From: an uncultured Chloroflexia bacterium
Lineage (GTDB): Bacteria; Chloroflexota; Limnocylindria; Limnocylindrales; CSP1-4
NCBI GenBank assembly: GCA_963838285.1
Contig: CAWIQP010000008.1
Location: 88,686 to 152,685, forward strand
DNA: 64,000 nt
Direction: 5' to 3'
Positions 43,856-60,622 of this stretch are shown here, piece by piece. The notes under the pieces are model-generated. The model did not search any database, was not told where the DNA came from, and saw only the letters and a program-made list of their open reading frames with translations. Numbering within the stretch: the first letter of the stretch is position 1; every line of letters starts with the position of its first letter. Made by a program: the position numbers and the translations under genes.

Positions 43856-43929
43856 CCCACACGAACTCAGTACAGCCCACCGATCAGTTCGCCATCCCCA
43901 CCCAGGGACCGGGCAGAAAGAGGAGCGAG

Positions 43930-44825: not shown

Positions 44826-44834
44826 GCACCCGCG

Positions 44835-45566
44835 ATGGCGACGACAGCGCACCTGCCGTTTCTCGACGGCAGGGCTCGCCTGACCATCGGGATCAACACC
44901 GCCGACCTGGGGCACCTTGCCGACGAGGTCCGCGTCCTCGAGGACGCCCGGGCCGAGATCGTCCACGTCGACGTCATGGACGGCGTCTTCTGCCCGGCGA
45001 CCACCGTCGGGCCGCCCTTCATCAAGGCGATCAGGACGCCGCTTCTCAAGGACGCCCACCTTATGATCGTCGACCCGATCGAGAAGGTGGCCGACTACGT
45101 CGCGGCGGGCGCCGACATCGTCACCTTCCAGGTCGAGTCCACTCGCCATTCCTATCGGGGCCTGCAGGTCCTCGGCAAGGCCGAGAACGCCAACGACCCG
45201 GCCCGCGGGATCGTCCGGGGAGTGGCGCTCAACCCGGGGACGCCCGTATCGGCGGTGGAGCCGCTGCTCGACGAGATCGGGAGTACGTGCTCATCCTGGC
45301 CGTCAATCCCGGCTGGGGCGGCCAGAAGTTCATCGAGTCCACCGAACGCCGCATGGCCGAAGCGGAAGGTTCTATCAAGCGCTCCGGCCGGCAGATCATG
45401 CTCGGCGCCGACGGCGGCGTGACGAAGGACAACATCGCCAGAGTCGCCGGCCATGGGGCCGAACCTCATCGTCACCGGCAGCGCCGTCTTCGACGGCAAG
45501 ACTCCGGCCGACAACGCCCGTTTCATGCTCGACGCGGTCCGGGGCATCGCGGTGGCGACGACGTAG
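44835..45566 (+). CDS. ribulose-phosphate 3-epimerase family protein; two compensating frameshifts
   Basis: N-terminal part (IVHVDVMDGVFCP, ...ALNPGTPV) in ORF 44835..45422. Middle (EYVLILAVNPGWGGQKFIESTERRMAEA...IMLGADGGV) lies in the frame of ORF 44576..45631. The C-terminus (GPNLIVTGSAVFDGKTPADNARFMLDAVRGIAVATT*) returns to the first frame, with stop at 45564-45566. Confidence 0.75.
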
Positions 45567-45643
45567 GCCAACGCCGCTCCGGAATCGAAAGGACGGGGTC
45601 GCGACGCCGGTCGGGCCCCGTCCTTTTGTAGTTGCCGGAGCCG

Positions 45644-46414
45644 TCAGAGCTCGGCGTTCACGATGAAGCCGCCGTCGACGAGGAGCGTCGCGCAGGTCAC
45701 GTACGTCGCGTCGTCCGAGAGGAGATAGGTGATCGCGCCGGCCATCTCCTCGGGCTCTCCGGGCCGGTGGATCGCGATCCGGTCGATGTAGTACTTCCAG
45801 ACCTCGGGGGCAGCGTCGAACATCGGCGCGCTCATGTTGGTCTTGATCCAGCCCGGCTCGACGGCGTTGACGCGGATGCCGTGCTCGCCGAGGTTGCATC
45901 CGAGCGCCTTGGCCAGCATGGAGATCGCGCCCTTGGTCCCGCAGTAGGCGGTCTGGTACGGGGCGCCGACGTGAGCGGAGATGGAGCTGGTGCAGCAGAT
46001 CGCGCCGCCGTGGCCCTCCTTGATCATCTGCTTGGCACCTTCCGTGACCACGACCCAGGTGCCGCGGACGTTGGTCTCCATGAGGTTGTTGAAGTCTTCG
46101 AGGCTCGTCTCGTCCCACTTCATGAACGGGTTGATGGCCGCGTTGGAGACCACGTAGTCGAGCCGGCCGCCCTTCTCGGCGACCTCGTGGACCATCCGAA
46201 TGACCTGTTCGGGGTCGCGCATGTCGGCCACGACCGGGAAGCCCTCCCCGCCCGCCTCCTTGATGCGGCGAAGTGTCTCGGTGGGATCGCCGGTCGGCCG
46301 CTGATTGACGCCGACCAGCGCCCCTTCGGCGGCCAGTCGCACTGCCGTCGCCTGTCCGATTCCATTCGTGGCCCCCGTCACGAGCGCCACCTTGCCGACG
46401 AATCGCTTCTCCAT
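45644..46414 (-). CDS. SDR family oxidoreductase (candidate polyol/ketose dehydrogenase)
   Basis: ATG at 46412-46414 with GGAGGA upstream. TGATNGIG Rossmann motif, NAAI, catalytic YxxxK (YCGTKGA). Confidence 0.9.
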   Translation of the reverse strand: MEKRFVGKVALVTGATNGIGQATAVRLAAEGALVGVNQRPTGDPTETLRRIKEAGGEGFPVVADMRDPEQVIRMVHEVAEKGGRLDYVVSNAAINPFMKWDETSLEDFNNLMETNVRGTWVVVTEGAKQMIKEGHGGAICCTSSISAHVGAPYQTAYCGTKGAISMLAKALGCNLGEHGIRVNAVEPGWIKTNMSAPMFDAAPEVWKYYIDRIAIHRPGEPEEMAGAITYLLSDDATYVTCATLLVDGGFIVNAEL

Positions 46415-46478
46415 TGGAACTCCTCCGAGTGGTCCTGCCGTGAGTGCCATGGTCGATGCCGCTATCGGGACGCCGGAA

Positions 46479-47237
46479 TCAGTGCATGCCGCGGCCGCCC
46501 GCGACGATCAACAACTCGCCGGTGATGAAAGCCGCCTCGTCCGAGGCGAGGAATACGGCCGACGACGCGACGTCGTCGGGAGTGCCCCAGCGCTTGAGGG
46601 CGGTTTCCTCGAGGATCCTCTGCTGCACCTCCGGGTCGATCTCCTCGACCATGTCCGTCCTGATCCAGCCCGGGCAGATGGCGTTGATCCTGACCTGGGG
46701 TCCGAGGGCGAGGGCCATCGCCTTGGTCAGGCCGTTCATGCCCGCCTTCGAGACGACGTACTCCGTGAAGCGCATCGCCGACGGGTGGTATAGGCCGGAG
46801 TTCGACGACATGTTGATGATCGAGCCGGACCCCTGGCGGATCATCACCGGCGCGACTTCCTTGGAGCACAGGTAGGCGCCCTTGAGGTTGACGTCGATGG
46901 TGACGTCCCAGTCGTCCTCGGTCGTCTCGAGGACGCCCTTGGCGACCATCACGCCGGCGTTGTTGACCAGGATGTCCACGCGGCCAAACCGTTCGAGCGT
47001 CCGCTCGACCAGGCGCCGGACGTCCGCGCTCCGCGACACGTCCGCTTGCACGTCGATCGCGGTTCCGCCCGCCGCTTCTATCCCGGCGACGACGGCGGCC
47101 GCGTTCTTCGACCCGGCGGTGTAGTTGACGACGACGGCCGCACCCTCGACCGCGAACCGCTCCGCGACCGCGCGGCCGATGCCTCTTGACGCACCGGTGA
47201 CTATCGCGACTTTGCCCGCCAAGCGCCCTTCGGCCAT
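46479..47237 (-). CDS. SDR family oxidoreductase (second paralog)
   Basis: ATG at 47235-47237. TGASRGIG, NNAG, catalytic YVVSKAG. Confidence 0.9.
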   Translation of the reverse strand: MAEGRLAGKVAIVTGASRGIGRAVAERFAVEGAAVVVNYTAGSKNAAAVVAGIEAAGGTAIDVQADVSRSADVRRLVERTLERFGRVDILVNNAGVMVAKGVLETTEDDWDVTIDVNLKGAYLCSKEVAPVMIRQGSGSIINMSSNSGLYHPSAMRFTEYVVSKAGMNGLTKAMALALGPQVRINAICPGWIRTDMVEEIDPEVQQRILEETALKRWGTPDDVASSAVFLASDEAAFITGELLIVAGGRGMH

Positions 47238-47404
47238 GGCCGTCTCCTTCCAAATCGCCCTGTTCGAAATCGAACGTGACCAGAACCCGGCCCCGGCCAT
47301 CGCGGGCTCCTCTCGCCGGACACTCCGCGAGCGGCGGCAGACGCCGGGCCGGCCGAAGCGGCAACTGGAGGATGCCCTCCGGCCGAGCCCCGCTGCCCGG
47401 GTAT

Positions 47405-47911
47405 CTACTTGGCCGGAGGGTACTGGCGGACCGGTGTCAGCTCGATCGCGTGACCGCTGCCCGACTCCGCGACGAAGTGGGCGTCTTTGGCCGTGTCGAG
47501 GTAGTAGAACTCGATCGTCTCGCCGATGCGGCCGCCCATCGACATCTCATACCCAGCGTCGCCGAAGCGCTTCTTGAACGCATCGGACTCTTCCTGGCTG
47601 TGACTCATCAGGGCAATGTGCTGTACGCCCTCGCCGTATCTGGCCAGGTGTTCCTTGTAGATCGAGTCGCCTTCCAGCGGCTGGATCAGTTCGAAGATGA
47701 GGCCCGGCTGGACTTCGCATTCCGCGCCGATCATCGAGTAGTCCGCCGGCTTGCCGTGCAGGTGCTGGTGGTGGAGCTTCGGCGGCACGTGCTCGTAGAC
47801 GTTCCAGGGGCCCCACCCGAACATCTCGTGATAGGTCTTCATCGCCGCGTCGATGTCCTTGACGACGACCGCGATCTGGCTGATCCGGTACGGCTTCTCG
47901 GGCGGGTTCAT
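47405..47911 (-). CDS. VOC family protein (glyoxalase / bleomycin-resistance / dioxygenase fold)
   Basis: ORF 47405..48202. ATG at 47909-47911 with GGAGGA upstream gives MNPPEKPYRISQIAVVVKDIDAAMKTYHEMFGWGPW...GVQHIAL (169 aa). Confidence 0.7.
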   Translation of the reverse strand: MNPPEKPYRISQIAVVVKDIDAAMKTYHEMFGWGPWNVYEHVPPKLHHQHLHGKPADYSMIGAECEVQPGLIFELIQPLEGDSIYKEHLARYGEGVQHIALMSHSQEESDAFKKRFGDAGYEMSMGGRIGETIEFYYLDTAKDAHFVAESGSGHAIELTPVRQYPPAK

Positions 47912-48174
47912 GGTCTCCTCCAGGTCATCGGTTCCAGGGGCCGGACCGCGCACCGTTGCGGCGACCTCGCCTTCCAGCGCAAAGGCCGACGTTGCGCCAT
48001 CGATCGGAAAGATTGTGCCACCAGGGTCAAGGTCATGCCATACTGGGATGCGTCGCGATACGGTGCCGGCCGAACGGGTAATCTGCAACTCGAAACGCAT
48101 GCCGGCTCGAGTGGCCAGGTGGCAGGCCGATGGGACCGCCGCCGACCGGGCCCGGGCCCGATTGGATGGGAGAC

Positions 48175-49143
48175 ATGGCGACAGGGCAGTCTTCACGGGC
48201 AACGCCGGCGGCCGGCGGCCGCGTCACAGATCTGCTCGTCGAGGTCGCCCGGCGCTTCTACCTTGTCGGTGAGACCCAGGTCGAGATCGCCCGCGATCTC
48301 GGGCTCGATCCGTCGACGGTCTCGAGGTACCTGAAGCGCGCTCGAGACGAGGGAGTCGTCCGAGTCGAGATCCGGCCGCCTCTCCGCCGGAACGTAGACC
48401 TGGGCCGGCAACTCGCCGACGCCTTTCACCTGTCCCGCGTGGTCGTCGCCTCGACCGAAGAGGAGGGCGATCTCTCGTGCCTGGCGGATGTGGCGGCAGA
48501 CTACGTCGGAACTCTTCTCCGCAACGGCATGAGGGTCGGCCTCGGCTGGGGATCCACGCTCTCGGCCACGGTCGGATGCATGGAACCGGGCGCCGTATCC
48601 GACCTGATCATCACGCAGCTGGCGGGCGGCTTGAGCGATCCCGTTCCGGGCATTCAGGGCCACGAGCTGGCCCGCCACCTGGCCAGCCTCTACCCAGGGA
48701 GCCTGGTCCACTACCTGCACGCTCCGTCGATCGTGGACTCGCCGGCCATCAAGGAGGCGATGCTCAGCGATTCCTCCGTCCAGGCCGCCCTGGCGCTGGC
48801 AACTCAGAGCGAATTGGCCCTGGTCGGGATCGGCGAAATAGGCCCGGAGGCGACGCTCCTGCGGTCGTCTCAGGTGACCCGAGGCGACCTTGAGCTGCTG
48901 CTGGCTGACGGGGTCGTGGGCAGCATGAACGGGCGCTTCTTCGGCCGCGACGGCAGGCCCGCCGGCCACCTCGACGAGCGCACCATCGCCATCGAGTGGG
49001 CCCAGCTGGCGGCGATCCCGACCGTCGTCGCCATTGCCGGCGGTCGGACGAAGGCCGATGCGATCCTCGGCGCCCTCCGCTCCGGTTGCGTCGACATCCT
49101 GATCACCGACGAGGCAACCGCGACGGCCCTGGCAGAGCGCTAG
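48175..49143 (+). CDS. SorC/DeoR-type sugar-binding transcriptional regulator (EryD/LsrR-like)
   Basis: GGGAGA RBS then the ATG at 48175. N-terminal HTH (LLVEVARRFYLVGETQVEIARDLGLDPSTVSRYLKRA), C-terminal sugar-phosphate-binding domain (GLGWGSTL...VGIGEIGPEA...). Confidence 0.85.
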   Translation: MATGQSSRATPAAGGRVTDLLVEVARRFYLVGETQVEIARDLGLDPSTVSRYLKRARDEGVVRVEIRPPLRRNVDLGRQLADAFHLSRVVVASTEEEGDLSCLADVAADYVGTLLRNGMRVGLGWGSTLSATVGCMEPGAVSDLIITQLAGGLSDPVPGIQGHELARHLASLYPGSLVHYLHAPSIVDSPAIKEAMLSDSSVQAALALATQSELALVGIGEIGPEATLLRSSQVTRGDLELLLADGVVGSMNGRFFGRDGRPAGHLDERTIAIEWAQLAAIPTVVAIAGGRTKADAILGALRSGCVDILITDEATATALAER

Positions 49144-49429: not shown

Positions 49430-50590
49430 ATGACGCTTACTCCTGGCCGTCCCGCCGTCATCGAGACCGCGACCGCACGGGTGCTGGGCATGTATGGCGG
49501 GGCGATCGGCCGCCGGCGCGAGGAACTGATCACGCCGGCGCTCGTGCTCGACGTCGATGCGGCGCAACGGAACATCGATCGCATGGCGGCACGGATAGCG
49601 CAGCTGCCGGCCGGCATCAGGCCGCATATCAAGGTTCACAAGAGTCCGGAGCTCAGCCGGCGCCAGATGGCCGCCGGGGCGCTCGGGCTGTGCACCGCTA
49701 CCGTCTGGGAAGCCATGGTCATGTTCGAAGCCGGCATCGACGACCTCTTCGTCGCCAACACGATCGCCGGACCGGACAAGATCCGCGCCATCGCCGAACT
49801 AGCCCGCGAGGCCAGCATCCGAGTGGCCGTCGACGACGCCGCGAATGCGGACGCCCTGTCCGCGGCAGCCGGAGCGGCCGGTTCGACCCTCGGCGTGATG
49901 ATCGAAGTCGATACCGGCATGGATCGTGCCGGAGTGGACGACGGGGACGCCGCCCTGGCCCTGGCGCGGCATCTCATGGACCTGCCCAACCTCCGGCTCG
50001 ACGGGATCACGGGCTACGAGGGTCACTGTTCCCTGACGCCGGAGCGAGATCTCCGGCTGGAGAAGCAGCGCGCGGCCATGGCGCTATTCACGGGCGTCGC
50101 CGACAGGCTGATCGCGGCCGGCATCCCCGTGAAGGTCCTCTCGGCCGGCGGAACTGGTACGTGGGAATGGACGGCTTCCCATCCAAGGCTGACGGAAGTC
50201 CAGGCCGGTACCTATGCGGTCATGGACATGTTCCACGGCCACATGTCGCCGGGGTTCGAGCACTCGCTGACTGTCCAGGCCACGGTCATCAGCAAGCCGC
50301 ATGGGCACGTGATCGTCGACGCCGGCAACAAGTCGATGGGCGCGGGCGGGCTCGCCACGATCGTCGGCTATCCGTACGAGTCGTTCCGCTTCGACGAGGA
50401 GCACGGCATCTTCAATGCCCCGGACGACGCGCCCCTCAAGGTCGGCGACTCGGTCGCCCTGGTGCCGGGCTACTCCCCGGGCACGGTCAACTGGTACGAC
50501 GCCTATCACGTCGTCAAGGACGACCTGGTCGTGGACATCTGGCCCGTCGTACCGCGCGGACCGGGCCACAACGGGCTGCTGGCCAGCTGA
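49430..50590 (+). CDS. PLP-dependent enzyme of the alanine-racemase-fold DSD1 / D-threonine aldolase family
   Basis: ORF 49253..50590. ATG at 49430 gives MTLTPGRPAVIE...PALVLDVDAAQRNIDRMA...IRPHIKVHKSPELSR (PLP lysine in KVHK)...GYEGH...C-terminal beta-domain. Confidence 0.85.
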   Translation: MTLTPGRPAVIETATARVLGMYGGAIGRRREELITPALVLDVDAAQRNIDRMAARIAQLPAGIRPHIKVHKSPELSRRQMAAGALGLCTATVWEAMVMFEAGIDDLFVANTIAGPDKIRAIAELAREASIRVAVDDAANADALSAAAGAAGSTLGVMIEVDTGMDRAGVDDGDAALALARHLMDLPNLRLDGITGYEGHCSLTPERDLRLEKQRAAMALFTGVADRLIAAGIPVKVLSAGGTGTWEWTASHPRLTEVQAGTYAVMDMFHGHMSPGFEHSLTVQATVISKPHGHVIVDAGNKSMGAGGLATIVGYPYESFRFDEEHGIFNAPDDAPLKVGDSVALVPGYSPGTVNWYDAYHVVKDDLVVDIWPVVPRGPGHNGLLAS

Positions 50591-50665
50591 CTCGGAAGGC
50601 ACCGGCGACCAGCTATCCGCCACTTGCCCCAGGCCGGGACACCGAACCAGGAGGCGAAGTCAGAA

Positions 50666-51627
50666 ATGGCAACCAATGCGGCAGCCCCGAAGGTAAGCCT
50701 GGCGGAGTTCGACCGCATCTTCGAGTCGGTCAAGAACTGGGGGAAATGGGCTCGGACGACCAGCTCGGAACCCTGAACTACATCACCCGCGACAAGGTTC
50801 GTCAGGCGGCGGGCCTGGTCAAGTCGGGCCGGCAGGTCTCAATGGAGATCCCCATCAACAAGGCGGCCGGCCCGGACAATCCCAACCAGGCTTTCCACTA
50901 TCTCACCCAGGGGCACGACATCGACATCGGCTCGAGCGGACTCACTTTCGCGCTCGACTTCCTGGGAATGGCGTGCCACGGCGACTGCCACACCCACATC
51001 GACGCGCTCTGCCATATCGCCTACAAAGGCCTCACCTACAACGGCAAGCCCGCCAACGAGGTCATCACCTCGAAGGGCGCGACCACGCTGGACATCACCA
51101 GCTACGCGAACGGCCTGGTCGGCCGCGGCGTACTCCTGGATATCCCGCGCCTGCGAGGCGTCAAGTGGCTCGAGCCCGGCGAGGCCGTCCGGCGCGACGA
51201 ACTCGAAGCGTGCGAGAAGAGCATCGGCCTCACGCTGGGCGAAGGCGACATCCTGGTATTCCGAACAGGCCACCACCGCCGCCGGCCTCGAGCTCGGCGC
51301 GTGGAGCAACGATCCGCCGCCGGCCGGCGAAGGCAAGGCCGGCCTTCACGTCGACACGATCCCCTGGATGCACGAGCGCAGGATCGCCGCCTTCCTTCCC
51401 GATGGCGACGGCGAAGCGGTGCCCAGCGTGGTCGAGGGAATGATCTATCCGATCCACCCGCTGCAGATAACAGCGATGGGCATGCTCGCCTCGGACAGCC
51501 TCCAGTTCGAGGACCTGGCCCGCGCCTGCGAGGAAGAGGGCCGATGGGAGTTCATGGTCGTGGGTCTGCCACTCCGCCTCCCCGGCGGCACGGGCTCTCC
51601 CTGGAATCCGATAGCGATCTTCTGATG
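50666..51627 (+). CDS. cyclase-family protein (kynurenine-formamidase / isatin-hydrolase-like metal hydrolase); two frameshifts
   Basis: Start MATNAAAPKVSLAEFDRIFESVKNWGKW; G-homopolymer loss near 50745; middle in the ORF 49369..51690 frame (SDDQLGTLNYITRDKV...HGDCHTHIDALCHIAYKG: the H-x-D / H metal motif); C-terminus in ORF 51368..51625 (MHERRIAAF...). Confidence 0.7.
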
Positions 51628-51779
51628 GAGGCGCCGTGGGGGTCCAACTCGAAGCGAGGGAGGAGGACGCCTAACGCGAGCGAGGTCTGACCTCCGGGGT
51701 TGCGGCGACGGTCCGTCCGGAGACCTACGTTGAGGTCGACCCAGGTCGACTCGGGTAGAAAGGCAGGAGAGAGGTCCAA

Positions 51780-53345
51780 ATGGCACAAGCATTGCCAGCT
51801 GTGTCGGTAGCCGAAACCAACCTAAAGGCAGGCGCCCTGAAGCTGCCATCCCATCTTCATGCAGAGCCTGACGATGGTCGCGCCGGGCATCGCCGCGGTG
51901 TTCTACACGCCCGTCGTCGTCAGCCAGGCCGGGCTCGCCGCGCCGCTGGCGTATCCAATCGCGGGCATCATCGTCCTCCTCACCGCCATCGTTCTCGCGC
52001 GGACTGGCGCGGGCAGTACCGTCCGCGGGCGGCTACTACACCTACGTTGCCAAGGGCATCCACCCGCGTGCCGGGTTCATCGTTCTCCTGGCTGAACATC
52101 ATCTACGCCCCGCTCGTGCTGGGCGCCGTGACCGTCTTCGGCGGCTATGTGATCTCCAGCTCGCTCAGCTGGACCGGTTTCTTCCAGGACTGGTTCCCGC
52201 TCCTGTTCGGTCTGGTCGCGGTCACGGTGGTGGCCTTCATCCAGTACCTGGGAGTCCAGCTGTCAGGCAAGACCCTGGTCGTCCTCGGCGGCATTGAGCT
52301 GATCGTCGTCTTCATCCTCGGCCTGTGGGGCCTCGCCAGCCCCGGACCGGGCGGTTTGAACCTCAAGCCGTTCGATCCGGGCAACGCGGTCAGCGCCTCC
52401 GGCCTTTTCCTGGCCGCCGTGTTCGCCATCCAGGCGTTCACCGGATGGGAAGGCGCCGCTCCGATGGCCGAGGAGACCGAGAACCCGCGCCGGAACGTTC
52501 CGCGCGCGCTCATCGGCTCGGTGATCCTCTTGGGCATCTTCATCATCGTCGTCCAGTGGGGCGTGATGGTCGGCTGGGGCACGGACAACCTCAAGACCAT
52601 TGCCAGTTCCACGGTGCTGCCGGGCATCGCGCTCGCGCAGAGGTTCTGGGGTGGTGCCTGGGGCATCCTCCTGCTGATGCTCTGCTCCTCCGTGGTGGCC
52701 GTGTCCATCGCCTGCGCCAACGTCGGCACCCGGATGTGGTACCGCATGGGCGTGGACGGCGCGTTCCCCAAGTGGTTCGCCAAGGTCGACTCGACCCGCA
52801 AGACCCCGATCAACGCGATCATCGCCCAGTGGGTCCTGGCCATCGCGACCGTTCTCGGCCTGACGCTCCTCGCCTATGTGGCCAGCCCGGCTCCGACGGG
52901 CGGCTCGGTCAACATGACCCTGGCCTACCAGAACCAGTACTACTTCGACGGCTACCTCATCGGCTACGTCGTCCTGGCGATCTACACGCTGGGCAACGTC
53001 GCGGCCTTCATGCTGTACTGGAACCAGCGCCGCTCCGAGTTCAACTGGATCCTGCACGGGCTCTTCCCGCTGCTTTCCACCCTCGGCATGATCGCCGTCC
53101 TGCTGTTCTCGCTGAACATCATCGGCGGCGATCCGCTGACGTTCCAGCCGGGCAGCGCCAGCCTGCCGCCGGCGCCGTTCAACATCGCCGTCGTGTTCGT
53201 CGCGGTCTGGATCGTCGTGGCCTGCGCACTCGTCGTGTACATGCGATTGGCCGGCCACGAGGACTGGATCGCCAAGGCGGCGGAGGCTGCTTCCGAGCGG
53301 CCCGCGACGCCGGAGGAGATCGCCGAGGCAGCCAGCAAGTGGTAA
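51780..53345 (+). CDS. APC-superfamily amino-acid permease; about three frameshifts in the first 300 bp
   Basis: 12-TM profile in ORF 51780..53345 from SWLNIIYAPLVLGAVTVFGG onward. The N-terminus is spread across frames (ORF 51859..52095 MQSLTMVAPGIAAVFYTPVVVSQAGLAAPLAYPIAGIIVLLTAIVLAR; a third frame gives PSAGGYYTYVAKGIHPRAGFIV). Confidence 0.75.
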   Translation: MAQALPAVSVAETNLKAGALKLPSHLHAEPDDGRAGHRRGVLHARRRQPGRARRAAGVSNRGHHRPPHRHRSRADWRGQYRPRAATTPTLPRASTRVPGSSFSWLNIIYAPLVLGAVTVFGGYVISSSLSWTGFFQDWFPLLFGLVAVTVVAFIQYLGVQLSGKTLVVLGGIELIVVFILGLWGLASPGPGGLNLKPFDPGNAVSASGLFLAAVFAIQAFTGWEGAAPMAEETENPRRNVPRALIGSVILLGIFIIVVQWGVMVGWGTDNLKTIASSTVLPGIALAQRFWGGAWGILLLMLCSSVVAVSIACANVGTRMWYRMGVDGAFPKWFAKVDSTRKTPINAIIAQWVLAIATVLGLTLLAYVASPAPTGGSVNMTLAYQNQYYFDGYLIGYVVLAIYTLGNVAAFMLYWNQRRSEFNWILHGLFPLLSTLGMIAVLLFSLNIIGGDPLTFQPGSASLPPAPFNIAVVFVAVWIVVACALVVYMRLAGHEDWIAKAAEAASERPATPEEIAEAASKW

Positions 53346-53463
53346 TCGCCTCGTCAAGTCCGGTCTAGCAATTCGAACGAGCGGCGCCGACCGAGAGGAC
53401 GGCGCCGCTCCTCTTCCCGGGCATCGAAGGCTGCCCGCCCGGAAGGTCTCCTGGAGGTGCGCA

Positions 53464-54583
53464 ATGCCTGAGCTATTCGGCAGTTCCTACTCTCGGTCGG
53501 ATCTCCTTCGCCACGTCGGTAGGCTCGAGCAGGTGGCCGGCGTCCGGCTGGTCACTCTCGGCGACAGCATCGGTCGTGGCGTCAGGGTGCTCGAGTTCCG
53601 GACGGGCTCGGGCTTCTCGTTCGATATCGTGGTGGATCGCTGCTTCGACATCGGCCGGTGCGAGATGGACGGCCGGCCGCTCAACTGGCAGGGCAACCCC
53701 GGCATCACCGGGCCGTGGTACTACGAGAACGACGAATGGGGCTGGTTCCGCTCCTGGGGCGGCGGGATGGTCGTGACCTGCGGCCTGGATCACACGCTGG
53801 GCCTCCGGCGAGGACGACGCCAGCGACTACCACCAGCCCCACATCTTCAAGACGGTCCACTACTCGCTCCACGGCCGAGTCGGCGGTCTGCCGGCCCGGC
53901 TCGTCGGCTACGGCGAGCGCTGGGACGGCGACGAGTGCGTCCTCTGGGCCGAGGGCGAAGTGCTCCAGTCGGCGATCTTCGGCGAGCATCTGCTGTTGCG
54001 ACGCCGAGTCGAGGCTCGCGTCGGCGAGGCTCACTTCACGATCCACGACGAGGTCGAGAACGTCGGGCACAACCGCACCTCGCACATGCTCCTGTATCAC
54101 TGCAACGCCGGCTTCCCGGTGATGGACGAGGGGTCGCGACTGCTGGTCCCATCACTCAAGACGACCACCGACTACGACGTGACGCCCGAATTGATGGCGA
54201 GCTACCGCACGCTCACCGGACCCATCAAGGACTACAGCGAGAAGTGCTTCGAGCACGAGCTGGTGGCCGAGAAGGACGGCAAGGTGCCGGTCGCCATCGT
54301 GAACCGGAAGCTCGGCTTGGGCGTCTACCAGGTCTTCCGCATCGACCAGCTGCCGCATCACACGGTCTGGCGGATGATGGGCGAGGACAGCTACGCCATG
54401 GCCATGGAGCCCGGCACCAATCGCGACGCGGGCCGCTGGGACGCCAAGCAGCGCGGCGAACTCCAGCACATGGAGCCCGGCGACGTCCGGCGCTACGACC
54501 TGGAGATCGGCGCCCTGGTGGGCGATACGGCGATCGATGGCTTCGCGGCCCGAGTCGAGAAGCTCGTGCCGGATCCGAAGTAG
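53464..54583 (+). CDS. DUF4432-family protein (aldose-1-epimerase-like fold, commonly in sugar catabolic loci); one frameshift
   Basis: N-terminus in ORF 53464..54927 up to ...VVTCGLDHTLG. Frame change near 53815 (homopolymer). It continues through EDDASDYHQPHIFKTVHYSLHGRVGGLPARLVGYGERWDGDECVLWAEGEV into ORF 53960..54583. Confidence 0.6.
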
Positions 54584-55114: not shown

Positions 55115-55897
55115 TCAGCCGGCCGCGGAATCCTCCGCCGTGAGCGTGCGACTGGCAATGCTTCCCGCGTGGGCTATCCGGGCGAATTCGGCCGGGTCGA
55201 GCGCGCTCCGCCCGACGAACAGGCCGTTCACCCCGGGTTGGACCAGGATGCCCCCGGCAATGTCCGCGCTCACGCTGCCGCCGTAGATCACCGGCACCTC
55301 GGCCCCGCGCCCGACGTTCTCCCGCAACCAGGTGTGGATCGCGCCGTGGACCTCGCCGACCCACCCGGGTTCCGCGGGCGCCGACCCGACGCCGATCGCC
55401 CAGACGGGCTCGTACGCCAGCACGAGACGGCTCGCGTCGGCGGACGCCAGCAGCTCCAGCTGGCGGCGGACGCGGGTAATGACCCCGGCCAGGGGCTCCC
55501 GCTGCCGGTTGGCCGACGCACACTATCGCCGTCATGCCCCAACGCTGGATCGCGGAGACCTGGGCCGGGACTCGCTCGTCGGACGCGCCCTGCATCGCAC
55601 CGCCGCTGCGCAGATGGCCGACCTCGACGTACGTGCAGCCAAGATCGGCCAGCATCGGGGCGGACACGTCCCCCGTGTGAGCGCCCGAGTCCTCCGGGGT
55701 CCACGTCCTGCGCTCCCCACGCGACCCGGCTCCCCGCGGAGCCCCTGGGCGACCGCCCAGATCGCCGTGAATGGCGGAAGCACGAAGAGATCACAATCCA
55801 CGACGTCGTCCACCAGGGGCCGCGGCGCCCAGCAGATATCGCGAGGCCTCACTCGAGGTGAATTTTTAGTCCAGCTCGTGCCAATGAGCATGCACAT
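55115..55897 (-). CDS. triosephosphate-isomerase paralog (TIM-like; candidate tetrulose-phosphate isomerase, LerI/EryH-like); multiple frameshifts
   Basis: N-terminus M(C)MLIGTSWTKNS...VLPPFTAIWAVAQGL (ORF 55532..55897); middle GAHTGDVSAPMLADLGCTYVEVGHLRSGG...IVCVG (frame of ORF 54225..55667); C-terminus LVLAYEPVWAIGVG...VIYGGSV...GLFVGRSAL (ORF 55115..55423). At least three indels at about 55690, 55670 and 55510. Confidence 0.75.
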
Positions 55898-55905
55898 GCC
55901 GCCGC

Positions 55906-56538
55906 CTATTCCCGAGCCGTCGGACTGCCGCGGAGGGCGGCCGCCATCGCCTCGACGATGATGGCGAACGAAGTCGCTCCGGGATCAGCCGAGCCGCGGC
56001 TAAGCTCGCCGAGCTTGCTGGCCCGCCCGACCGTGGCGATCATGCCGGCGGTCGAGTCCGCTCCCCTGCGCGCGGCCGCCGCGGCCGCATCGATTCCCAC
56101 CAAGAGATCGTCGCCTCGGACCTCGGAGGCACGCAGCGATTCGACCAGCGGGTGAAGCGCGTCGAGGACGGTCTTGTCGCCGGGTTTGGCCTTTCCGCGC
56201 TCGGCGATTCCGGCTTCGGCTGCCTCGGCACAGGCGCGAAGCTGGCCCACCGTCACCGGCGGGGCCGGGGCCAACGCCGCGATCTTCAGCAGACCCGTCA
56301 TGTAGATCGGACCGATGGCACCGCCGACGGAGCCGATGCCGAGGGCGACCTGTCGGATCAGATCCGGCCCGGAGGCGTCGGGGGACGCCGTCAGCTTCTG
56401 CCGGACGCTTCGCGCGGCGATCGCCATCGTCATCCCGTGGTCGCCGTCGCCGGCCCTTGCGTCGAGGACGCCGAGTTCGTCTCGGGCTGCCTCCAACGCG
56501 TCGGCGGCGGCAAGGATGCAGCTTCGTAGCTCGCTCAT
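55906..56538 (-). CDS. dhaL: dihydroxyacetone-kinase ADP-binding subunit DhaL-like
   Basis: ATG at 56536-56538 overlaps the dhaK stop (ATGA). MSELRSCILAAADALEAARDELGVLDARAGDGDHGMTM (DGDHG motif), about 210 aa. Confidence 0.85.
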   Translation of the reverse strand: MSELRSCILAAADALEAARDELGVLDARAGDGDHGMTMAIAARSVRQKLTASPDASGPDLIRQVALGIGSVGGAIGPIYMTGLLKIAALAPAPPVTVGQLRACAEAAEAGIAERGKAKPGDKTVLDALHPLVESLRASEVRGDDLLVGIDAAAAAARRGADSTAGMIATVGRASKLGELSRGSADPGATSFAIIVEAMAAALRGSPTARE

Positions 56539-57557
56539 CGGGCGTACCCGACAGCTCGGGCCGTGGCGTCGAGCAGCTCGCGCAGCTCCGCGTCGAGGTC
56601 CATCACGGTCACGGACGCTCCGGTCATCTCGAGCGAGGTGATGAACTCTCCGACGTGACTCCGCGTGACGGTGTTGCCCGCCGCCTCGAGCGCCTTGCGC
56701 GCACCCCGATAGAGGATGTACTGGTCCAGGTGAGCCGTGGCGCCAAGGCCGTTCACCATGAGCGCGAACTCGTGCCCGGACGGCGAGTCCATGTCCGAGA
56801 GGATGACGTCCACGAGCGACGCCGCGATCTCGTCGGCGGTCACCAGGGGCCCGCGGCGCATGCCCGGCTCGCCGTGAACCCCCATCCCGATCTCCATCAT
56901 GTCCGCGGGGATCTCGAAGGTGGGCCTGCCCGAGCCGGGGACCTCGCACGGAGAGAGCGCAACGCCCATGCTGCGAGTGGCCGCGTTCGCCTTCCGGGCA
57001 ACCCGGTCTACCTCGTCGAGTGTGGCGCCGCGTTCGGCCATCGCGCCGATGCACTTGAACACGTAGATGTCGCCCGCGGTGCCGCGCCGCTTCTCAGCCT
57101 CTGCCCGCGGGGAGGAGGCGACGTCGTCCATCACCCGGACCTCGCGGACGTCGATGCCCTCGGCTTCGGCGAGTTCCCTGGCAAGGCCGAAGTTGAGCAC
57201 GTCGCCGCTGTAGTTCCCGTAGCTCATGACCACGCCACGGCCCGTGTCAGCGGCCCGGATCGCATCGAGGCATACGTCGGGGGGCGGCGAGGCGAAGACG
57301 TTGCCGCACGCGGCCGCGTCGGCGAACCCGACTCCGACGTACCCCGCGAACGCGGGCTCGTGGCCGGAGCCGCCGCCCACGACGAACCCCACCTTCGGTC
57401 CGGCGGGAGTGCGCCGCGCAACGACGCGCGGCGCGGCCAGGCGCACCAGGTCCGCGTTGGCCGCGACGAAGCCTTCGAGCATCTCGTCGACCGCGTCGAA
57501 CGGGTCGTTGATGATCTTCTTGAGAACCCCGCGGGAGACCTCCGGCTGCTGTGGCAT
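56535..57557 (-). CDS. dhaK: dihydroxyacetone-kinase substrate-binding subunit DhaK-like (candidate D-erythrulose / DHA kinase)
   Basis: AGGAGGA then ATG at 57555-57557. ...GFVVGGGSGHEPAFAGYVG...VVMSYGNYSGDVLNFG...HGEPG. Canonical DhaK motifs. Confidence 0.9.
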   Translation of the reverse strand: MPQQPEVSRGVLKKIINDPFDAVDEMLEGFVAANADLVRLAAPRVVARRTPAGPKVGFVVGGGSGHEPAFAGYVGVGFADAAACGNVFASPPPDVCLDAIRAADTGRGVVMSYGNYSGDVLNFGLARELAEAEGIDVREVRVMDDVASSPRAEAEKRRGTAGDIYVFKCIGAMAERGATLDEVDRVARKANAATRSMGVALSPCEVPGSGRPTFEIPADMMEIGMGVHGEPGMRRGPLVTADEIAASLVDVILSDMDSPSGHEFALMVNGLGATAHLDQYILYRGARKALEAAGNTVTRSHVGEFITSLEMTGASVTVMDLDAELRELLDATARAVGYAR

Positions 57558-57604
57558 CTCCATCCTCCTGGTCGAGCGCCCCGACCGCGGGCGCCTGCTG
57601 CCGG

Positions 57605-58075
57605 TCAGACTCGGCCTGAGTCGGGCGTGCGTTCGCCGGCCGTGATCTTATTCACCTTGCGCTCGGATTCCCCGCCGGAGAACTCGGAGGCGAGCCAGAT
57701 GCGCACCAGCGACTTCGCGAGCTCGGGCCCGACGACGCGCGCGCCCATGGTCATGATCTGGGTGTTGTTCGACTTCCGCGACCGCTCGGCCGAATAGGGG
57801 TCGTGCACCTGGGCGGCCCGGATCGGGCACCTTGTTGGCCGTGATTGCCATGCCGATCCCGGTGCCGCAGATGAGGACCCCCTATCGTGCTCGCCGCGAG
57901 CGATGGCGTGGGCGACCTCGTAGCCGATGTCCGGGTAGTCGACGCTGTCGAGCGAGTAGCAGCCGTAGTCCTTGACCTCGATCTCCTCATCGTGCAGCAG
58001 CTCGATCACCGTTTGCTTGAGTGCGAAGCCCGCCTCGTCGCATCCGATGGCAATCTCACGGTACTTGGAAGTCAC
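57605..58075 (-). CDS. RpiB/LacA/LacB-family sugar-phosphate isomerase (candidate D-erythrulose-4-P / ribose-5-P isomerase, DerI/EryI-like); two compensating frameshifts
   Basis: GTG at 58073-58075 with AGGTG 5 nt upstream gives VTSKYREIAIGCDEAGFALKQ...DYPDIGYEVAHAIARGEHDRG. Then G-homopolymer loss; (V)LICGTGIGMAITANKVP in the frame of ORF 57648..57851; back in frame for IRAAQVHDPYSAERSRKSNNTQIMTMGARVVG...RKVNKI. Confidence 0.8.
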   Translation of the reverse strand: MTSKYREIAIGCDEAGFALKQTVIELLHDEEIEVKDYGCYSLDSVDYPDIGYEVAHAIARGEHDRGSSSAAPGSAWQSRPTRCPIRAAQVHDPYSAERSRKSNNTQIMTMGARVVGPELAKSLVRIWLASEFSGGESERKVNKITAGERTPDSGRV

Positions 58076-58184: not shown

Positions 58185-59753
58185 ATGGAAATGTCGCCGC
58201 CCGCCCGACCTGCGGTCCGAGGTCGATCTGCTACCGTTCCCGGTCGTGGAGCAGCGCAGCCGACCTCGTCGGGCAGACGACCGACCCCCTTCGGGCCGGA
58301 AGCCGGGGTAGCCACGGTCGCGGACGCGGCCGCCTCGGGCCCGACCGCTGAGCTCGATCTGTCGGCGCTCGCCTCGGCGCTCGCGACGTCCGACCCCTCC
58401 GGCCGTCGTCATCCGATCGGGCTGCGTCGGATCCTGATCGGCGACGACGCGCTGACATCCCTGCCGGGCGTCGTGGCCGAGCTGAAGCAGGTCGGGCCGG
58501 TCGTGATGCTGACCGACCCTACCCCCATGAACAGGCGCGGCGAGGACCTCAAGCCTGCCGTCCTGCGACTCCTGGCCGGCACGTTTCCGTGCCGGTGGGA
58601 GATCGTTCGGGGCAGCGCGGCCCAGCTGCACGCGGAAGAGGGTTCCATCGCCGAGGCTCAGACCCTGGTGGCCGGAGCCGGCTGCGTCGTCGTCGTCGGC
58701 TCGGGCACCATCACCGACATCGGCAAGGAGGCCACCCGGCGCGCGGGCGGCATCCCGCTCGTCGCCGTCCAGACGGCGGTTTCCGTCAACGCCTTCTCCG
58801 ACGACATGGCAGTCCTCCTCATCGACGGGGTGAAGCGAACCGTGCCGTCGCGCTGGCCGGATGCCCTCGTGGTCGATCTGTCGGTCATCGCGGATGCGCC
58901 TGTCGAGATGAACAGGGCCGGGTTCGGCGAGCTGGCCTCGATGTATACCGCGCCCGCGGACTGGTACCTCGCCGGCGCGGCCGGCATGGACGACGGCTGG
59001 CTCGGGGCCCCGGTGGAGCTGGCACGCCGGGAGGCCGAGGCACTGCTGGCGGCGGCCGTGCGGATCCACGACCGGGAGCGCGACGCCCTGGCGCTGCTGG
59101 TCCGGGCCATGACGATGAGCGGGATCGCGCTCGGAATCGCGGGCAAGACGGCCCCCCTGTCGGGGAGCGAGCATCTCATAAGCCACATGCTCGACATGGA
59201 CGCGGCGGCGACTGGCCGGGAGGCGGCCTTCCACGGCGCGCAGGTCGGCGTTGGGTCGATCCTGATGGCGATCGTCTGGCGCGAGACACTCGCCCGCTGG
59301 TACGCGGGCGGGTTCGAGATCGGACGACTGTATCCGTCCGCGACCGATCTGGAACCGCAGGTTCGGGCGGCATTCTCGCGCCTGGATCCGTCGGGCCGGG
59401 CCGCGGACGAATGCTGGCGCGACTACTCGCGTAAGCTGGATCGCTGGCACGCGGCGAGACCGCGATTCGAAGCTTTCGTGCGCGATTGGCCGAGGCACAG
59501 GGCGGCGCTCGGATCGCTGGTCGCGGATCCGGCCACGCTCGCCGCGGCCATCGAGCGATCCGGTGCGCCGGCGCGCTTCTCGCAGCTTCGACCGGCGGTT
59601 TCCCCGGACGTCGCCCGCTGGGCTCTCCGCCACTGCCACCTCATGCGCGACCGGTTCACGGTCATGGACCTGCGCTTCTTCGCGGGAAGCTGGGGCGACG
59701 AGGACGTCGAGTCGGCGCTGGGTGTCGCGGCCGGGTTGGGGGCCGGCCTGTGA
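58185..59753 (+). CDS. iron-containing alcohol dehydrogenase superfamily protein, glycerol-1-phosphate dehydrogenase (EgsA/AraM)-like
   Basis: ORF 57972..59753; start uncertain (ATG 58185, or internal starts up to about 58330). Conserved core from IGLRRILIGDDAL...VVVGSGTITDIGKEA (nucleotide loop)...D...H...H metal ligands (SEHLISHMLD...FHGAQVG). Confidence 0.7.
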   Translation: MEMSPPARPAVRGRSATVPGRGAAQPTSSGRRPTPFGPEAGVATVADAAASGPTAELDLSALASALATSDPSGRRHPIGLRRILIGDDALTSLPGVVAELKQVGPVVMLTDPTPMNRRGEDLKPAVLRLLAGTFPCRWEIVRGSAAQLHAEEGSIAEAQTLVAGAGCVVVVGSGTITDIGKEATRRAGGIPLVAVQTAVSVNAFSDDMAVLLIDGVKRTVPSRWPDALVVDLSVIADAPVEMNRAGFGELASMYTAPADWYLAGAAGMDDGWLGAPVELARREAEALLAAAVRIHDRERDALALLVRAMTMSGIALGIAGKTAPLSGSEHLISHMLDMDAAATGREAAFHGAQVGVGSILMAIVWRETLARWYAGGFEIGRLYPSATDLEPQVRAAFSRLDPSGRAADECWRDYSRKLDRWHAARPRFEAFVRDWPRHRAALGSLVADPATLAAAIERSGAPARFSQLRPAVSPDVARWALRHCHLMRDRFTVMDLRFFAGSWGDEDVESALGVAAGLGAGL

Positions 59754-60622
59754 GCGACCGCAAGACGGCCCGAGGGTCCGCGGGCGACTCGGAACGAGGG
59801 CACAATTCGATCGGGTCGCCCCTCCGGCCGGACCGGCTCTACGACGGCTACGTCATCGATCTGGACGGGACGGTCTACCTGGGCAACGCGCTGCTGCCCG
59901 GTGCGCGCCAGACGATCGAGCAGCTGCGCCGGGCCGGGCGCCGCCTGGTCTTCCTCACCAACAAGCCCCTCGAGCGCTCCTCCGACTACGCCGCCAAGCT
60001 GACTCGCCTGGGGCTCCCGACAACGCCAGCGGAGATCGTCTCCTCTACCGACGCGCTGCTGCGCTACCTCGGCGAGAGAGCGGCCGGAGCGCGGATCTTC
60101 CCCGTGGCCGAGCCGCTGCTGTGGGAGCTCCTGGCGGAGGCCGGGTTCGAGACGACGGACCGGCCCGAGCGCGTGGACGTCGTGGTTGCGTCGTTCGACC
60201 GAACCTTCGACTACGCGAAGCTGAAGATCGCCTTCGACGCCATTCGGGCGGGGGCGCGTCTCGTCGCGACGAATCCGGACGCGTTCTGCCCTACTCCCGA
60301 CGGCGGGCTGCCCGACTGCGCGGCAATGCTGGGAGCGATCGAGGGCTGCACCGGGGTGCGAGCCGAGGCGATAGTGGGCAAGCCCTCGCCGCACATGGCG
60401 GCGACGCTGCTGGAGCGTCTGCACGTCGACGCGGCGGAGACGTTGCTCGTGGGCGACCGCCTCGCGACGGACGTGCGGATGGCCGCCGAGGCAGGGATGG
60501 CGAGCGCGCTGGTACTCACGGGAGCCACGCGCGGCAGCGACCTGGCGGCCTCGCCGATCCGGCCGGACTACGTGCTTGAGGAGATCGGCGACCTCCTGCC
60601 GAGGCCCAAGCCATTGCGGTAG
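59750..60622 (+). CDS. HAD-IIA family hydrolase (NagD-like sugar-phosphate phosphatase)
   Basis: GTG at 59750 overlaps the upstream stop. YVIDLDGTVY (DxDGT), FLTNKP, ...VGDRLATDV (motif IV). Confidence 0.8.
   Translation: MSDRKTARGSAGDSERGHNSIGSPLRPDRLYDGYVIDLDGTVYLGNALLPGARQTIEQLRRAGRRLVFLTNKPLERSSDYAAKLTRLGLPTTPAEIVSSTDALLRYLGERAAGARIFPVAEPLLWELLAEAGFETTDRPERVDVVVASFDRTFDYAKLKIAFDAIRAGARLVATNPDAFCPTPDGGLPDCAAMLGAIEGCTGVRAEAIVGKPSPHMAATLLERLHVDAAETLLVGDRLATDVRMAAEAGMASALVLTGATRGSDLAASPIRPDYVLEEIGDLLPRPKPLR

Follow-up and report, generated by a model that had tools for sequence, protein, structure and literature searches.

A candidate erythrulose phosphorylation and isomerization cluster with a split dihydroxyacetone-type kinase in an uncultured Chloroflexota bacterium

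In Mycolicibacterium smegmatis, the kinase LerK forms L-erythrulose-1-phosphate, which is converted to D-erythrulose-4-phosphate by LerI and further to D-erythrose-4-phosphate by DerI, and the combination of EltD, LerK, LerI and DerI allows an Escherichia coli tktAB mutant to make erythrose-4-phosphate (E4P) from erythritol or L-threitol (PMC10733421). The erythritol cluster of Yarrowia contains EYK1, a member of the dihydroxyacetone kinase (DAK) family, together with genes resembling triose-phosphate isomerase (TIM) and ribose-5-phosphate isomerase B (RpiB), and a passage in the same article, which cites Barbier 2014, states that DAK genes co-occur with eryH/eryI homologs in genomes without eryA/eryB (PMC5992420). 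The route from erythrulose to E4P is so far known in Mycolicibacterium, predicted in some proteobacteria and found in Yarrowia. Here, we describe a four-gene cluster (positions 55115-58075, minus strand) in a stretch of 64,000 nt with ~69% G+C, hereafter the window, from an uncultured Chloroflexia bacterium of the Limnocylindrales (assembly GCA_963838285.1, contig CAWIQP010000008.1, positions 88,686 to 152,685). The cluster encodes a split DAK-family kinase (DhaK and DhaL) and paralogs of TIM and RpiB. We give about even chances to the reading that it is a module for the phosphorylation and isomerization of a tetrulose (erythrulose), of the LerK/LerI/DerI type.

The cluster comprises the following genes:

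58075-57605, minus strand: RpiB-like gene; GTG start at 58075, TGA stop at 57607-57605
57563-56535, minus strand: DhaK, 342 amino acids; ATG start at 57563 or 57557, TGA stop at 56537-56535
56538-55906, minus strand: DhaL, 210 amino acids; ATG start at 56538-56536, TAG stop at 55908-55906
55897-55115, minus strand: TIM-like gene; ATG start at 55897, TGA stop at 55117-55115

The RpiB-like gene and DhaK are separated by 41 nt when translation of DhaK begins at 57563, or by 47 nt when it begins at the second Met, which is preceded by AGGAGG at a distance of 6 nt. The DhaK stop and the DhaL start overlap (ATGA), and 8 nt lie between the DhaL stop and the TIM-like ATG. An earlier note on this DNA, made from the letters alone, had described four tightly packed minus-strand genes at these positions, with the ATGA overlap and gaps of 8-47 nt, all of which was confirmed. 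The four family assignments are backed by NCBIfam and PDB sequence searches. The reading frames of DhaK and DhaL are uninterrupted, whereas those of the TIM-like and RpiB-like genes are broken as assembled.

The strongest single argument for a role like that of DerI/EryI, rather than that of a pentose-phosphate isomerase, is the replacement of several histidines in the RpiB-like protein. The protein reconstructed across its frame changes scores 190 bits against NF004051 and 157 bits against TIGR01120, thereby passing the cut-off of the latter (138.65). It was aligned with the RpiB proteins of E. coli (1nn4), C. thermocellum (3he8) and a trypanosomatid (6fxs), with alphaproteobacterial EryI-like proteins and with the first 126 residues of M. 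smegmatis DerI1. True RpiBs contain D-H at positions 9-10, HND at 99-101 and G-R-H at 132-134. In the window protein, His10 is replaced by Glu, His99 by Ser and Arg133-His134 by Glu-Ser, and together with its closest orthologs it has D-E or D-D, SNN or SND, and G-x-S at these sites. Orthologs from loci with the alternative gene order described below (L005, L010, L013, L014 and L075) retain His10 and share the other two changes. DerI1 contains D-D and SNN, with His10 and His99 replaced, and the EryI-like proteins contain D-S, SNN and R-S or H-S. The catalytic Cys is kept in all aligned proteins (CGTG; CGTGIG in the window protein). The RpiB-like protein thus carries a DerI/EryI-type signature, as derived here, consisting of the RpiB/LacAB fold, the catalytic Cys and the replacement of His10 and His99. 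We take His99 to be the residue that opens the furanose ring in RpiB, and His10, Arg133 and His134 to be those that hold the phosphate; since an acyclic tetrose-4-phosphate would need neither ring opening nor that phosphate grip, a DerI/EryI-like function is favored.

The TIM paralog also departs from housekeeping enzymes at its active site. A search with the ortholog from locus L003 returned 7,356 matches at E <= 1e-20 among 8,000 candidates scored, and the best 120 of these, which are 58-100% identical to the query, were examined. PF00121 is present in all 120. The database name is triosephosphate isomerase for nearly all of them and L-erythrulose 1-phosphate isomerase for one. The nearest homolog of the window protein is P0097 (69% identity). 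Within this family, H94 and E161 do not vary and K10 is conserved to at least 90%, and the corresponding codons are present in the window copy, where the frame is broken. The N-terminal signature is G[TAS][SG]xKM[NH]: GTSxKM[NH], in which Ser replaces Asn10, occurs in 90 of 105 scorable N-termini, a further 13 have Gly or Ala variants, and GNWKM is found in none of the 120. The motif GAHTGD is present in 107 and DGLF[VI]GR in 111 of the 120 proteins, the latter replacing the canonical DGxLVGGASL. Canonical TIMs (Thermus, M. tuberculosis, Thermotoga, Rhodococcus 9quu and PDB 4y8f) contain AGNWKM[NH] and DG[GA]LVGGASL. Two residues are therefore replaced in the paralog family, namely the catalytic Asn10 and, in the phosphate-binding loop 8, the second Gly, whereas the Lys, His95 and Glu165 are kept. 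The earlier note had pointed to divergence at the N-terminus; the change from Asn to Ser is real (IGTSxKMN in intact relatives versus AGNWKMN), whereas the residues it quoted, LIGTSWTKNS, run into the first frameshift.

Corresponding motifs are found in proteins of the erythrulose route. Brucella EryH/LerI (PDB 11ef; sequence obtained via the Ochrobactrum ortholog in L069) contains GTSWKMN and DGLFIGRSAW, the N-terminus of M. smegmatis LerI (translated from PMC10733421 Supplementary Data 3) contains GTSWKMN, and so do the EryH-like proteins of Ochrobactrum and other alphaproteobacteria, the full-length ones among which also contain LFIGR. The TIM paralog family shows this LerI/EryH active-site signature (GTSWKMN; LFIGRSA, with GG changed to GR in loop 8), which was derived here from few characterized sequences and has no published definition. 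Against the TpiA equivalog model NF000722 (cut-off 293), the window protein scores 191 bits and two intact orthologs 232 and 216 bits; the intact orthologs pass TIGR00419 (cut-off 130.6) marginally with 131.3 and 136.7 bits, and the window copy falls below it with 121.9 bits. The equivalog score, Asn10 and the loop-8 GGASL of housekeeping TpiA are all lacking in the paralog. An AlphaFold model of the nearest intact TIM paralog (pLDDT 90) has the TIM fold, and its top Foldseek matches in the PDB are all ordinary TIMs, which is uninformative on specificity. Judged by these features, neither the TIM nor the RpiB paralog looks like a housekeeping enzyme, which agrees with the earlier note, though the RpiB-like protein does pass TIGR01120.

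DhaK and DhaL have the features that define the DAK family: Dak1 and Dak2 domains, the substrate-binding His/Asp/His and the nucleotide-site GDGDHG, with Pfam Dak1/Dak2 matches on the orthologs. DhaK matches the family with E = 1e-131, scores 440 bits against NF011049 and 254 bits against Lactococcus lactis DhaK (3ct4), and contains the motifs GGGSGHEP, NYSGDVLNF and GMGVHGEPG; DhaL scores 142 bits against NF011049. Both subunits fit this fused model (dihydroxyacetone kinase family protein) better than the DhaK and DhaL equivalogs of the phosphotransferase system (PTS) type, as DhaK scores 371.6 bits against TIGR02363, under the cut-off of 406, and DhaL scores 133.4 bits against TIGR02365, under the cut-off of 138.3. 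In addition to these low equivalog scores, the locus lacks the DhaM/HPr donor of PTS-dependent DhaKLM systems. A search for HPr-like sequences in the window and in the 166 compared loci (L numbers) gave none, and PTS Pfam families were absent from the four annotated neighborhoods among L081-L085, although a donor gene at another place in the genome is conceivable. Because no PTS partner lies nearby and fused single-chain Dak1-Dak2 proteins occur in the same position in L083 and L084, the kinase is likely ATP-dependent.

DhaK is 47% identical to the first 133 amino acids of M. smegmatis LerK. According to a modelling preprint, Brucella DerK homologs are two-subunit enzymes (bioRxiv 10.1101/2023.10.19.563124), and a split kinase is therefore compatible with a function as erythrulose kinase. 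NCBIfam offers no curated model for LerK or DerK specificity, and the substrate, the position of phosphorylation and the use of ATP are not assignable from the kinase sequence.

The closest relatives of DhaK are encoded by Chloroflexota metagenome-assembled genomes (MAGs), mostly of Candidatus Limnocylindria/Limnocylindrales (64-77% identity), followed by a second tier of alphaproteobacterial fused DAK proteins (~55%). At least 11 related loci contain this set of four genes side by side and uninterrupted, arranged in the order RpiB-DhaK-DhaL-TIM (L001, L003, L004, L006, L008 and L009) or DhaK-DhaL-TIM-RpiB (L005, L010, L013, L014 and L075). Furthermore, Dak1 and Dak2 (split or fused), TIM and RpiB are neighbors in five independent contigs (L081-L085) that were retrieved via the TIM paralog alone, and the set is thus conserved in soil bacteria other than Chloroflexota relatives, too. 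The four-gene arrangement is thus not a chance juxtaposition. In some lineages, the isomerases are dispensable or lost, as DhaK-DhaL (8001 to ~9640) stands without them in L007, L011 and L015.

A neighboring block of 6.5 kb (41021-47559) is 86% identical to L008 and 83% identical to L006 at the DNA level. The four-gene cluster itself, which lies on the other side of this block and in opposite orientation compared to these loci, is only 70% (L008) and 68% (L006) identical, and the best match of its DhaK (77%) is to L002. These differences suggest that the cluster was relocated or was replaced by a copy from a different lineage. The window contains no second copy, and none lies upstream of 41021, where the cluster is located in L006 and L008.

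In the favored reading, the split DhaK/DhaL kinase would phosphorylate a free ketose with a CH2OH group next to the carbonyl, most likely L-erythrulose, yielding L-erythrulose-1-phosphate. The TIM paralog could then shift the carbonyl by the enediol mechanism of TIM to give D-erythrulose-4-phosphate, its substrate being equivalent to dihydroxyacetone phosphate (DHAP) with an additional CH2OH group, and the RpiB-like protein would convert D-erythrulose-4-phosphate to E4P in a DerI-type step. Erythrulose might be supplied by neighboring short-chain dehydrogenases/reductases (SDRs) oxidizing a tetritol or a related compound, and a SorC-type regulator encoded in the surrounding gene island may control expression. 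The substrate, the position of phosphorylation, the ATP dependence and the link to the SDRs are the parts of this scheme that we infer.

The earlier note had read the cluster as a route from D-erythrulose via a D-erythrulose 4-kinase (DerK). The enzyme families stood up to analysis, and a DAK kinase with two tetrulose-type isomerases is the published pattern; the DerK route did not, and a LerK/LerI/DerI route from L-erythrulose is more coherent. As a TIM-type LerI step is needed only for L-erythrulose-1-phosphate, the route would start from L-erythrulose and not from the action of DerK on D-erythrulose. The gene set, its conservation and the signatures of both isomerases fit the published scheme, and we take the LerK/LerI/DerI reading as the best.

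The cluster belongs to a conserved island, which has the following further members at lower coordinates:

41221-42300, plus strand: 2-hydroxyacid dehydrogenase
42293-43855, plus strand: LsrK ortholog (FGGY kinase; NCBIfam LsrK 617 bits, cut-off 528; PDB 5ya0 493 bits)
43930-44825, plus strand: LsrF ortholog (aldolase fold; NCBIfam 491 bits, cut-off 297; PDB 3gkf 407 bits)
44835 to ~45631, plus strand: Rpe-like, LsrE-like gene, with frameshifts at 45278 and 45448
45644-46450 and 46479-47300, minus strand: two SDR dehydrogenases (Pfam)
47405-47911, minus strand: VOC/glyoxalase-family protein (Pfam)
48130-49143, plus strand: SorC-type regulator with sugar-binding domain (PF04198 208 bits; weak NCBIfam DeoR/LsrR matches)

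The LsrF ortholog is ~68% identical to E. coli LsrF, as read by eye off the printed alignment. The SDRs have only generic NCBIfam SDR matches (GolD/DthD 188 bits, under the 286 cut-off) and are candidate polyol/ketose oxidoreductases of the island; SDR and VOC genes adjoin the cluster in relatives, too. A homolog of the SorC-type protein, the candidate regulator of the island, adjoins the kinase/isomerase genes in L001, L005, L014, L015, L075 and L081-L085. All long loci of the TIM paralog clade combine the DAK-TIM-RpiB set with homologs of LsrK, LsrF and LsrE. The compact stand-alone module proposed by the earlier note was not borne out, as the set always occurs in a larger island with these Lsr homologs and three relatives have DhaKL without the isomerases.

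Downstream of the regulator (49453-54583, plus strand), the island also encodes a PLP enzyme resembling D-serine dehydratase, a cyclase-family hydrolase, an APC amino-acid permease and a DUF4432 protein, and this run is conserved with the island in several relatives. It hints at an amino compound as the possible substrate of the island, instead of a plain sugar or polyol.

Several observations weigh against the assignment of the cluster to the erythrulose route. The most constant partners of the kinase, the LsrF-like and Rpe-like genes, which accompany it in 11 of 11 long loci of Chloroflexota, do not take part in the published route, and no tetritol dehydrogenase or transporter was specifically identifiable with NCBIfam. 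In three related loci (L007, L011 and L015), the island contains DhaK-DhaL, but neither TIM nor RpiB occurs within 8 kb. The kinase retains the GHEP of ordinary DhaK, whereas LerK has GHYP. The RpiB-like protein passes the generic RpiB cut-off and misses the DerI equivalog NF051858 (161 bits versus a cut-off of 240; 151-155 bits for orthologs), a model named EryPhIsonDerIRhiz and apparently built on rhizobial sequences. The two isomerase genes in the window are, moreover, not translatable as they stand. As for the TIM paralog, it is 32-45% identical to EryH-type proteins and 37-42% identical to the LerI N-terminus, and its best PDB sequence match is Thermus TIM (198 bits, versus 153 bits for LerI). 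Mean identity between the paralogs and the EryH group (37.7%) is no higher than that between the paralogs and canonical TIMs (39.5%), that between the EryH group and canonical TIMs being 36.5%. The substitutions shared with LerI/EryH could be convergent or tuned for a different substrate.

LerI and EryH are 56% identical to each other. In a neighbor-joining tree, the paralogs (bootstrap 94), the EryH group (100) and canonical TIMs (92) fall into three distinct groups; since the tree has just these clades and no outgroup, it does not show whether the paralog is sister to EryH/LerI. Judging by these alignments, the TIM paralog is a separate clade without orthology to LerI/EryH. The alignment to characterized LerI/EryH and DerI/EryI proteins, which the earlier note had called for, thus bore out shared active-site substitutions in both isomerases and placed the TIM paralog outside the known LerI/EryH group.

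Some of these observations would suit a pathway of triose salvage, which we regard as unlikely. DhaKL would act on dihydroxyacetone or glyceraldehyde released by an LsrF-type or other aldolase, the TIM paralog would equilibrate DHAP and glyceraldehyde-3-phosphate (GAP), and the RpiB-like and Rpe-like proteins would rearrange pentose or hexose phosphates, in a fructolysis-like or allose-like arrangement for some other sugar. DhaK keeps all canonical motifs for binding of dihydroxyacetone and its best solved relatives are dihydroxyacetone kinases, and both the constant association of DhaKL with LsrF-like and Rpe-like genes and the three loci with DhaKL but without TIM/RpiB are in agreement with such a role. 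E. coli LsrF produces DHAP, and RpiB together with an Rpe-family epimerase is the allose pair of E. coli. The LsrF homolog of the island is close (the 407 bits to PDB 3gkf given above), and both isomerases pass generic family models, the intact TIM orthologs just passing TIGR00419 and the RpiB-like protein passing TIGR01120. However, Asn10 and the loop-8 GG are replaced in nearly all scorable members among the 120 TIM homologs, and His10, His99 and His134 are replaced in the RpiB-like protein, and enzymes with established activity on tetrulose phosphates show both sets of changes. A second TIM dedicated to plain DHAP/GAP would be superfluous, too.

The Lsr homologs also raise the possibility, in our view quite improbable, of an Lsr-type pathway for DPD (autoinducer-2, AI-2) or a DPD-like diketo or ketol compound. 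LsrK would phosphorylate this compound, the TIM paralog would take the place of LsrG in converting P-DPD to P-HPD, and LsrF would cleave the product to DHAP and acetyl-CoA, with DhaKL and the RpiB-like protein handling related ketols. The LsrK and LsrF orthologs exceed their NCBIfam equivalog cut-offs and are accompanied by the LsrE-like Rpe, and such homologs lie beside DAK-TIM-RpiB in every long locus of the TIM clade and in no alphaproteobacterial EryH-type locus; LsrF-like and Rpe-like genes were likewise found in none of the alphaproteobacterial DAK loci. No LsrG homolog was detected in the window or in the 166 loci, and no member of the ABM Pfam family in the annotated loci. Judging from their structures, P-DPD and P-HPD are acetyl analogs of erythrulose-4-phosphate and erythrulose-1-phosphate, and the LsrG reaction would formally equal that of LerI. 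On the other hand, the Lsr transporter (LsrACDB) has no counterpart in the island, it is not obvious on which substrate an aldose-ketose isomerase of the RpiB type would act in DPD processing, and the VOC protein, too, is a candidate for the role of the missing isomerase. The case for this pathway consists of co-location and the absence of LsrG, and most LsrF-like loci are without LsrK or the DAK set, so that LsrF is not tied to the trio, nor necessarily to AI-2.

The LsrF family is indeed broader than the island. Among 29 metagenomic LsrF-like loci of at least 10 kb, DhaK was found in 2 and LsrK in 3, and the idea of a universal LsrF-DAK unit was dropped. LsrF-like proteins 67-79% identical to that of the window are common in soil, peat and sediment metagenomes (L087-L166), where they usually occur with an Rpe-like protein and without LsrK, LsrG and DAK. 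In L090 (10001-13861) and L098 (10001-13873), the LsrF/Rpe pair is followed by an open reading frame (ORF) of ~700 amino acids which, by a guess based on the N-terminal sequence, encodes an aldolase/short-chain-dehydrogenase fusion. In the literature, no paper was found that joins LsrF or LsrK with dihydroxyacetone kinase or erythrulose, and the role of the LsrF family outside enterobacteria looks unexplored.

A broader scheme, which we consider a long shot, combines Lsr-type enzymes with LerI/DerI-type isomerases. The TIM paralog might represent an uncharacterized third TIM subfamily (GTSxKMN, GAHTGD, LFVGR), and the island an undescribed catabolic pathway for ketol phosphates of the types CH2OP-CHOH-CO-R and CH2OP-CO-CHOH-R, in which R stands for CH2OH (tetruloses) or acetyl (DPD/AI-2-like). 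In this scheme, the TIM paralog would be a non-orthologous replacement of LsrG, and the Rpe-like protein possibly a tetrulose-4-phosphate 3-epimerase. Carriers of this TIM subfamily are soil Chloroflexota and MAGs labelled Aeromicrobium (Actinomycetota) and Dormibacterales.

Several indels in the TIM-like and RpiB-like genes had already been noticed, and frameshift-aware alignment to intact homologs mapped seven frame changes in the TIM-like gene, near 55860, 55835, 55738, 55695, 55612, 55593 and 55508, all within its first 400 nt. The RpiB-like gene contains two compensating frame changes, near 57879 (inside a G5 run) and 57824. The 1.25 kb of TIM and RpiB thus contain nine frameshifts, versus none in the 1.66 kb of DhaK and DhaL, and the rest of the window has roughly 9 candidate frameshifts in ~61 kb, with a background of roughly 0.15-0.6 per kb. 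At this rate, seven frameshifts in the 0.78-kb TIM gene have a probability of p < 1e-6 by our own Poisson estimate. Programmed frameshifting was rejected, since the shifts are of mixed sign, scattered and also present in unrelated genes.

Apparent frame changes also affect well-conserved neighbors, which indicates that the assembly is noisy in general. Relative to L008, one nucleotide is deleted from the LsrF gene at 44095, and the Rpe-like gene has a +2 insertion at 45278 and a +1 insertion at 45448; a codon-position HMM and ORF overlaps suggest further frame changes in the cyclase (51262), the permease (~52050), the DUF4432 gene (53805), an unidentified gene (26561/26773) and a large surface protein. 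This pattern fits a long-read-type assembly that is prone to indels throughout the window, and we lean slightly toward a locally poor, long-read-type consensus as the cause of the broken TIM-like and RpiB-like frames. That both isomerase genes are instead true pseudogenes, with the erythrulose-type route being lost and only DhaKL functional, is a serious possibility, to which we give a little less than even chances. Their frameshift density is far above the background of the window, DhaK and DhaL have none, and of the 73 columns conserved in the family, the window TIM is off consensus at 9, among them the KMN, SERRR and CVGE motifs, exceeding the maximum of 5 (median 1) among the 120 family members. 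Natural loss does occur, as L007, L011 and L015 are without both isomerases, and the cluster sits in a different place and is more divergent from L006/L008 (68-70% identity) than the flanking block (83-86%). However, seven of the nine deviant TIM columns are directly beside a frameshift and the last 130 codons are clean, family-like and without extra in-frame stops, so that the deviant residues bunch at frameshift sites rather than being evenly spread, which resembles a locally bad consensus. Moreover, one RpiB shift falls in the G5 run, and frameshifts are also present in LsrF, which has 97% amino acid identity to L008, as well as in the Rpe, permease, DUF4432, cyclase and surface-protein genes.

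Two further regions of the window deserve mention. Divergent from the RpiB-like gene (58374-60622, plus strand), an Fe-ADH_2 protein like NAD(P)-dependent glycerol-1-phosphate dehydrogenase (145 bits, cut-off 413) is followed by a HAD-IIA phosphatase. This pair recalls the AraM/AraL pair of Bacillus and was found beside the cluster in no other locus. The large surface protein (10917-16773, minus strand) is a secreted protein of > 1,800 amino acids rich in Thr, Ser, Gly and Ala, with many near-identical tandem repeats of ~90-100 amino acids that are Ig-like by eye. Its N-terminal part is protease-like by eye, and overlapping ORFs indicate a frameshift near 16.0-16.4 kb. The gene accounts for the strong GC skew at 10-14 kb, and an interpretation of the odd composition at 10-17 kb as rRNA was rejected in favor of this repetitive surface-protein gene. 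The window as a whole yielded no Rfam hits at the gathering threshold.

If the LerK/LerI/DerI reading is true, the route from erythrulose to E4P extends to Chloroflexota and other abundant uncultured soil lineages. The TIM paralogs would then constitute a second, sequence-distinct family of tetrulose-phosphate isomerases that could be useful for synthetic formaldehyde-assimilation cycles, for which better LerI and DerI variants are explicitly wanted (PMC10733421). In addition, the public names triose-phosphate isomerase and RpiB, and the NCBIfam-derived names AI-2 kinase and LsrF thiolase for the neighbors, would mislead metabolic reconstructions of the MAGs concerned. The value of this window is limited, as two of the four genes are unreadable as assembled, and true decay would leave this strain with a working kinase only. 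Of greater interest is which compound the island as a whole degrades, and whether the TIM subfamily acts on tetrulose phosphates, DPD-like ketol phosphates or both; the only feature with the potential to reveal something new is the constant link to LsrK/LsrF in the absence of LsrG.

Among described systems, the tetritol pathway of M. smegmatis (EltD, LerK, LerI and DerI1/2), reportedly described by Huang et al. in JACS in 2015, shares with the window the clustering of DAK, TIM and RpiB families, the GTSWKMN motif of the TIM member, an RpiB member without His10 and His99, and the logic of converting a ketotetrose via a 1-phosphate and a 4-phosphate ketose to E4P. In this comparison, which covers the first ~125-130 residues of LerK, LerI and DerI1, the window kinase differs in being split and having GHEP, whereas LerK consists of one chain and has GHYP (47% identity over 133 amino acids), and the window TIM paralog belongs to another clade, 37-42% identical to LerI. 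Furthermore, the window has SDRs instead of an adjacent Zn-dependent EltD-type dehydrogenase, and its cluster lies in an island of Lsr homologs.

Brucella EryH (TpiA2, PDB 11ef) and EryI resemble the window proteins in that a TIM paralog with GTSWKMN and DGLFIGR is encoded beside an RpiB paralog with His10 and His99 replaced, and in the alphaproteobacterial loci L024, L072 and L076, a DAK kinase is found beside EryH/EryI-type genes. EryH is said to be an L-erythrulose-1-phosphate isomerase and EryI a D-erythrulose-4-phosphate isomerase, according to work by Barbier et al. in 2014. The Brucella isomerases are, however, fed by EryA, EryB and EryC (erythritol kinase, dehydrogenase and racemase) and not by a DAK kinase, and EryH contains GAWTGE and IGENG where the TIM family of the window contains GAHTGD and IG[EVA]G, at 32-45% identity.

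The cluster of Yarrowia lipolytica (EYD1, EYK1, the TIM-like YALI0F01584g and the RpiB-like YALI0F01628g/EYI1; PMC5992420) is similar by description in combining a DAK erythrulose kinase with both isomerases and a dehydrogenase, and differs in being eukaryotic and encoding a single-chain kinase. The DhaK-DhaL-DhaM systems of E. coli and Lactococcus share with the window two subunits encoded by overlapping genes, the His/Asp/His of DhaK and the GDGDHG of DhaL, and provide the best solved-structure matches. In contrast to these, the window kinase has no DhaM/HPr nearby, stays under the DhaK/DhaL equivalog cut-offs and is linked to two sugar-phosphate isomerases. The enterobacterial Lsr genes, finally, correspond to the island in LsrK and LsrF orthologs above curated cut-offs, an LsrE-like Rpe and a SorC-family regulator, whereas the island is without LsrACDB and LsrG and contains a DAK kinase, TIM and RpiB paralogs, SDRs, a 2-hydroxyacid dehydrogenase, a VOC protein and a PLP enzyme. 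The cluster, damaged in the window, is a variant of a known system that is set apart by its split kinase, its distinct TIM subfamily and its Lsr-like setting.

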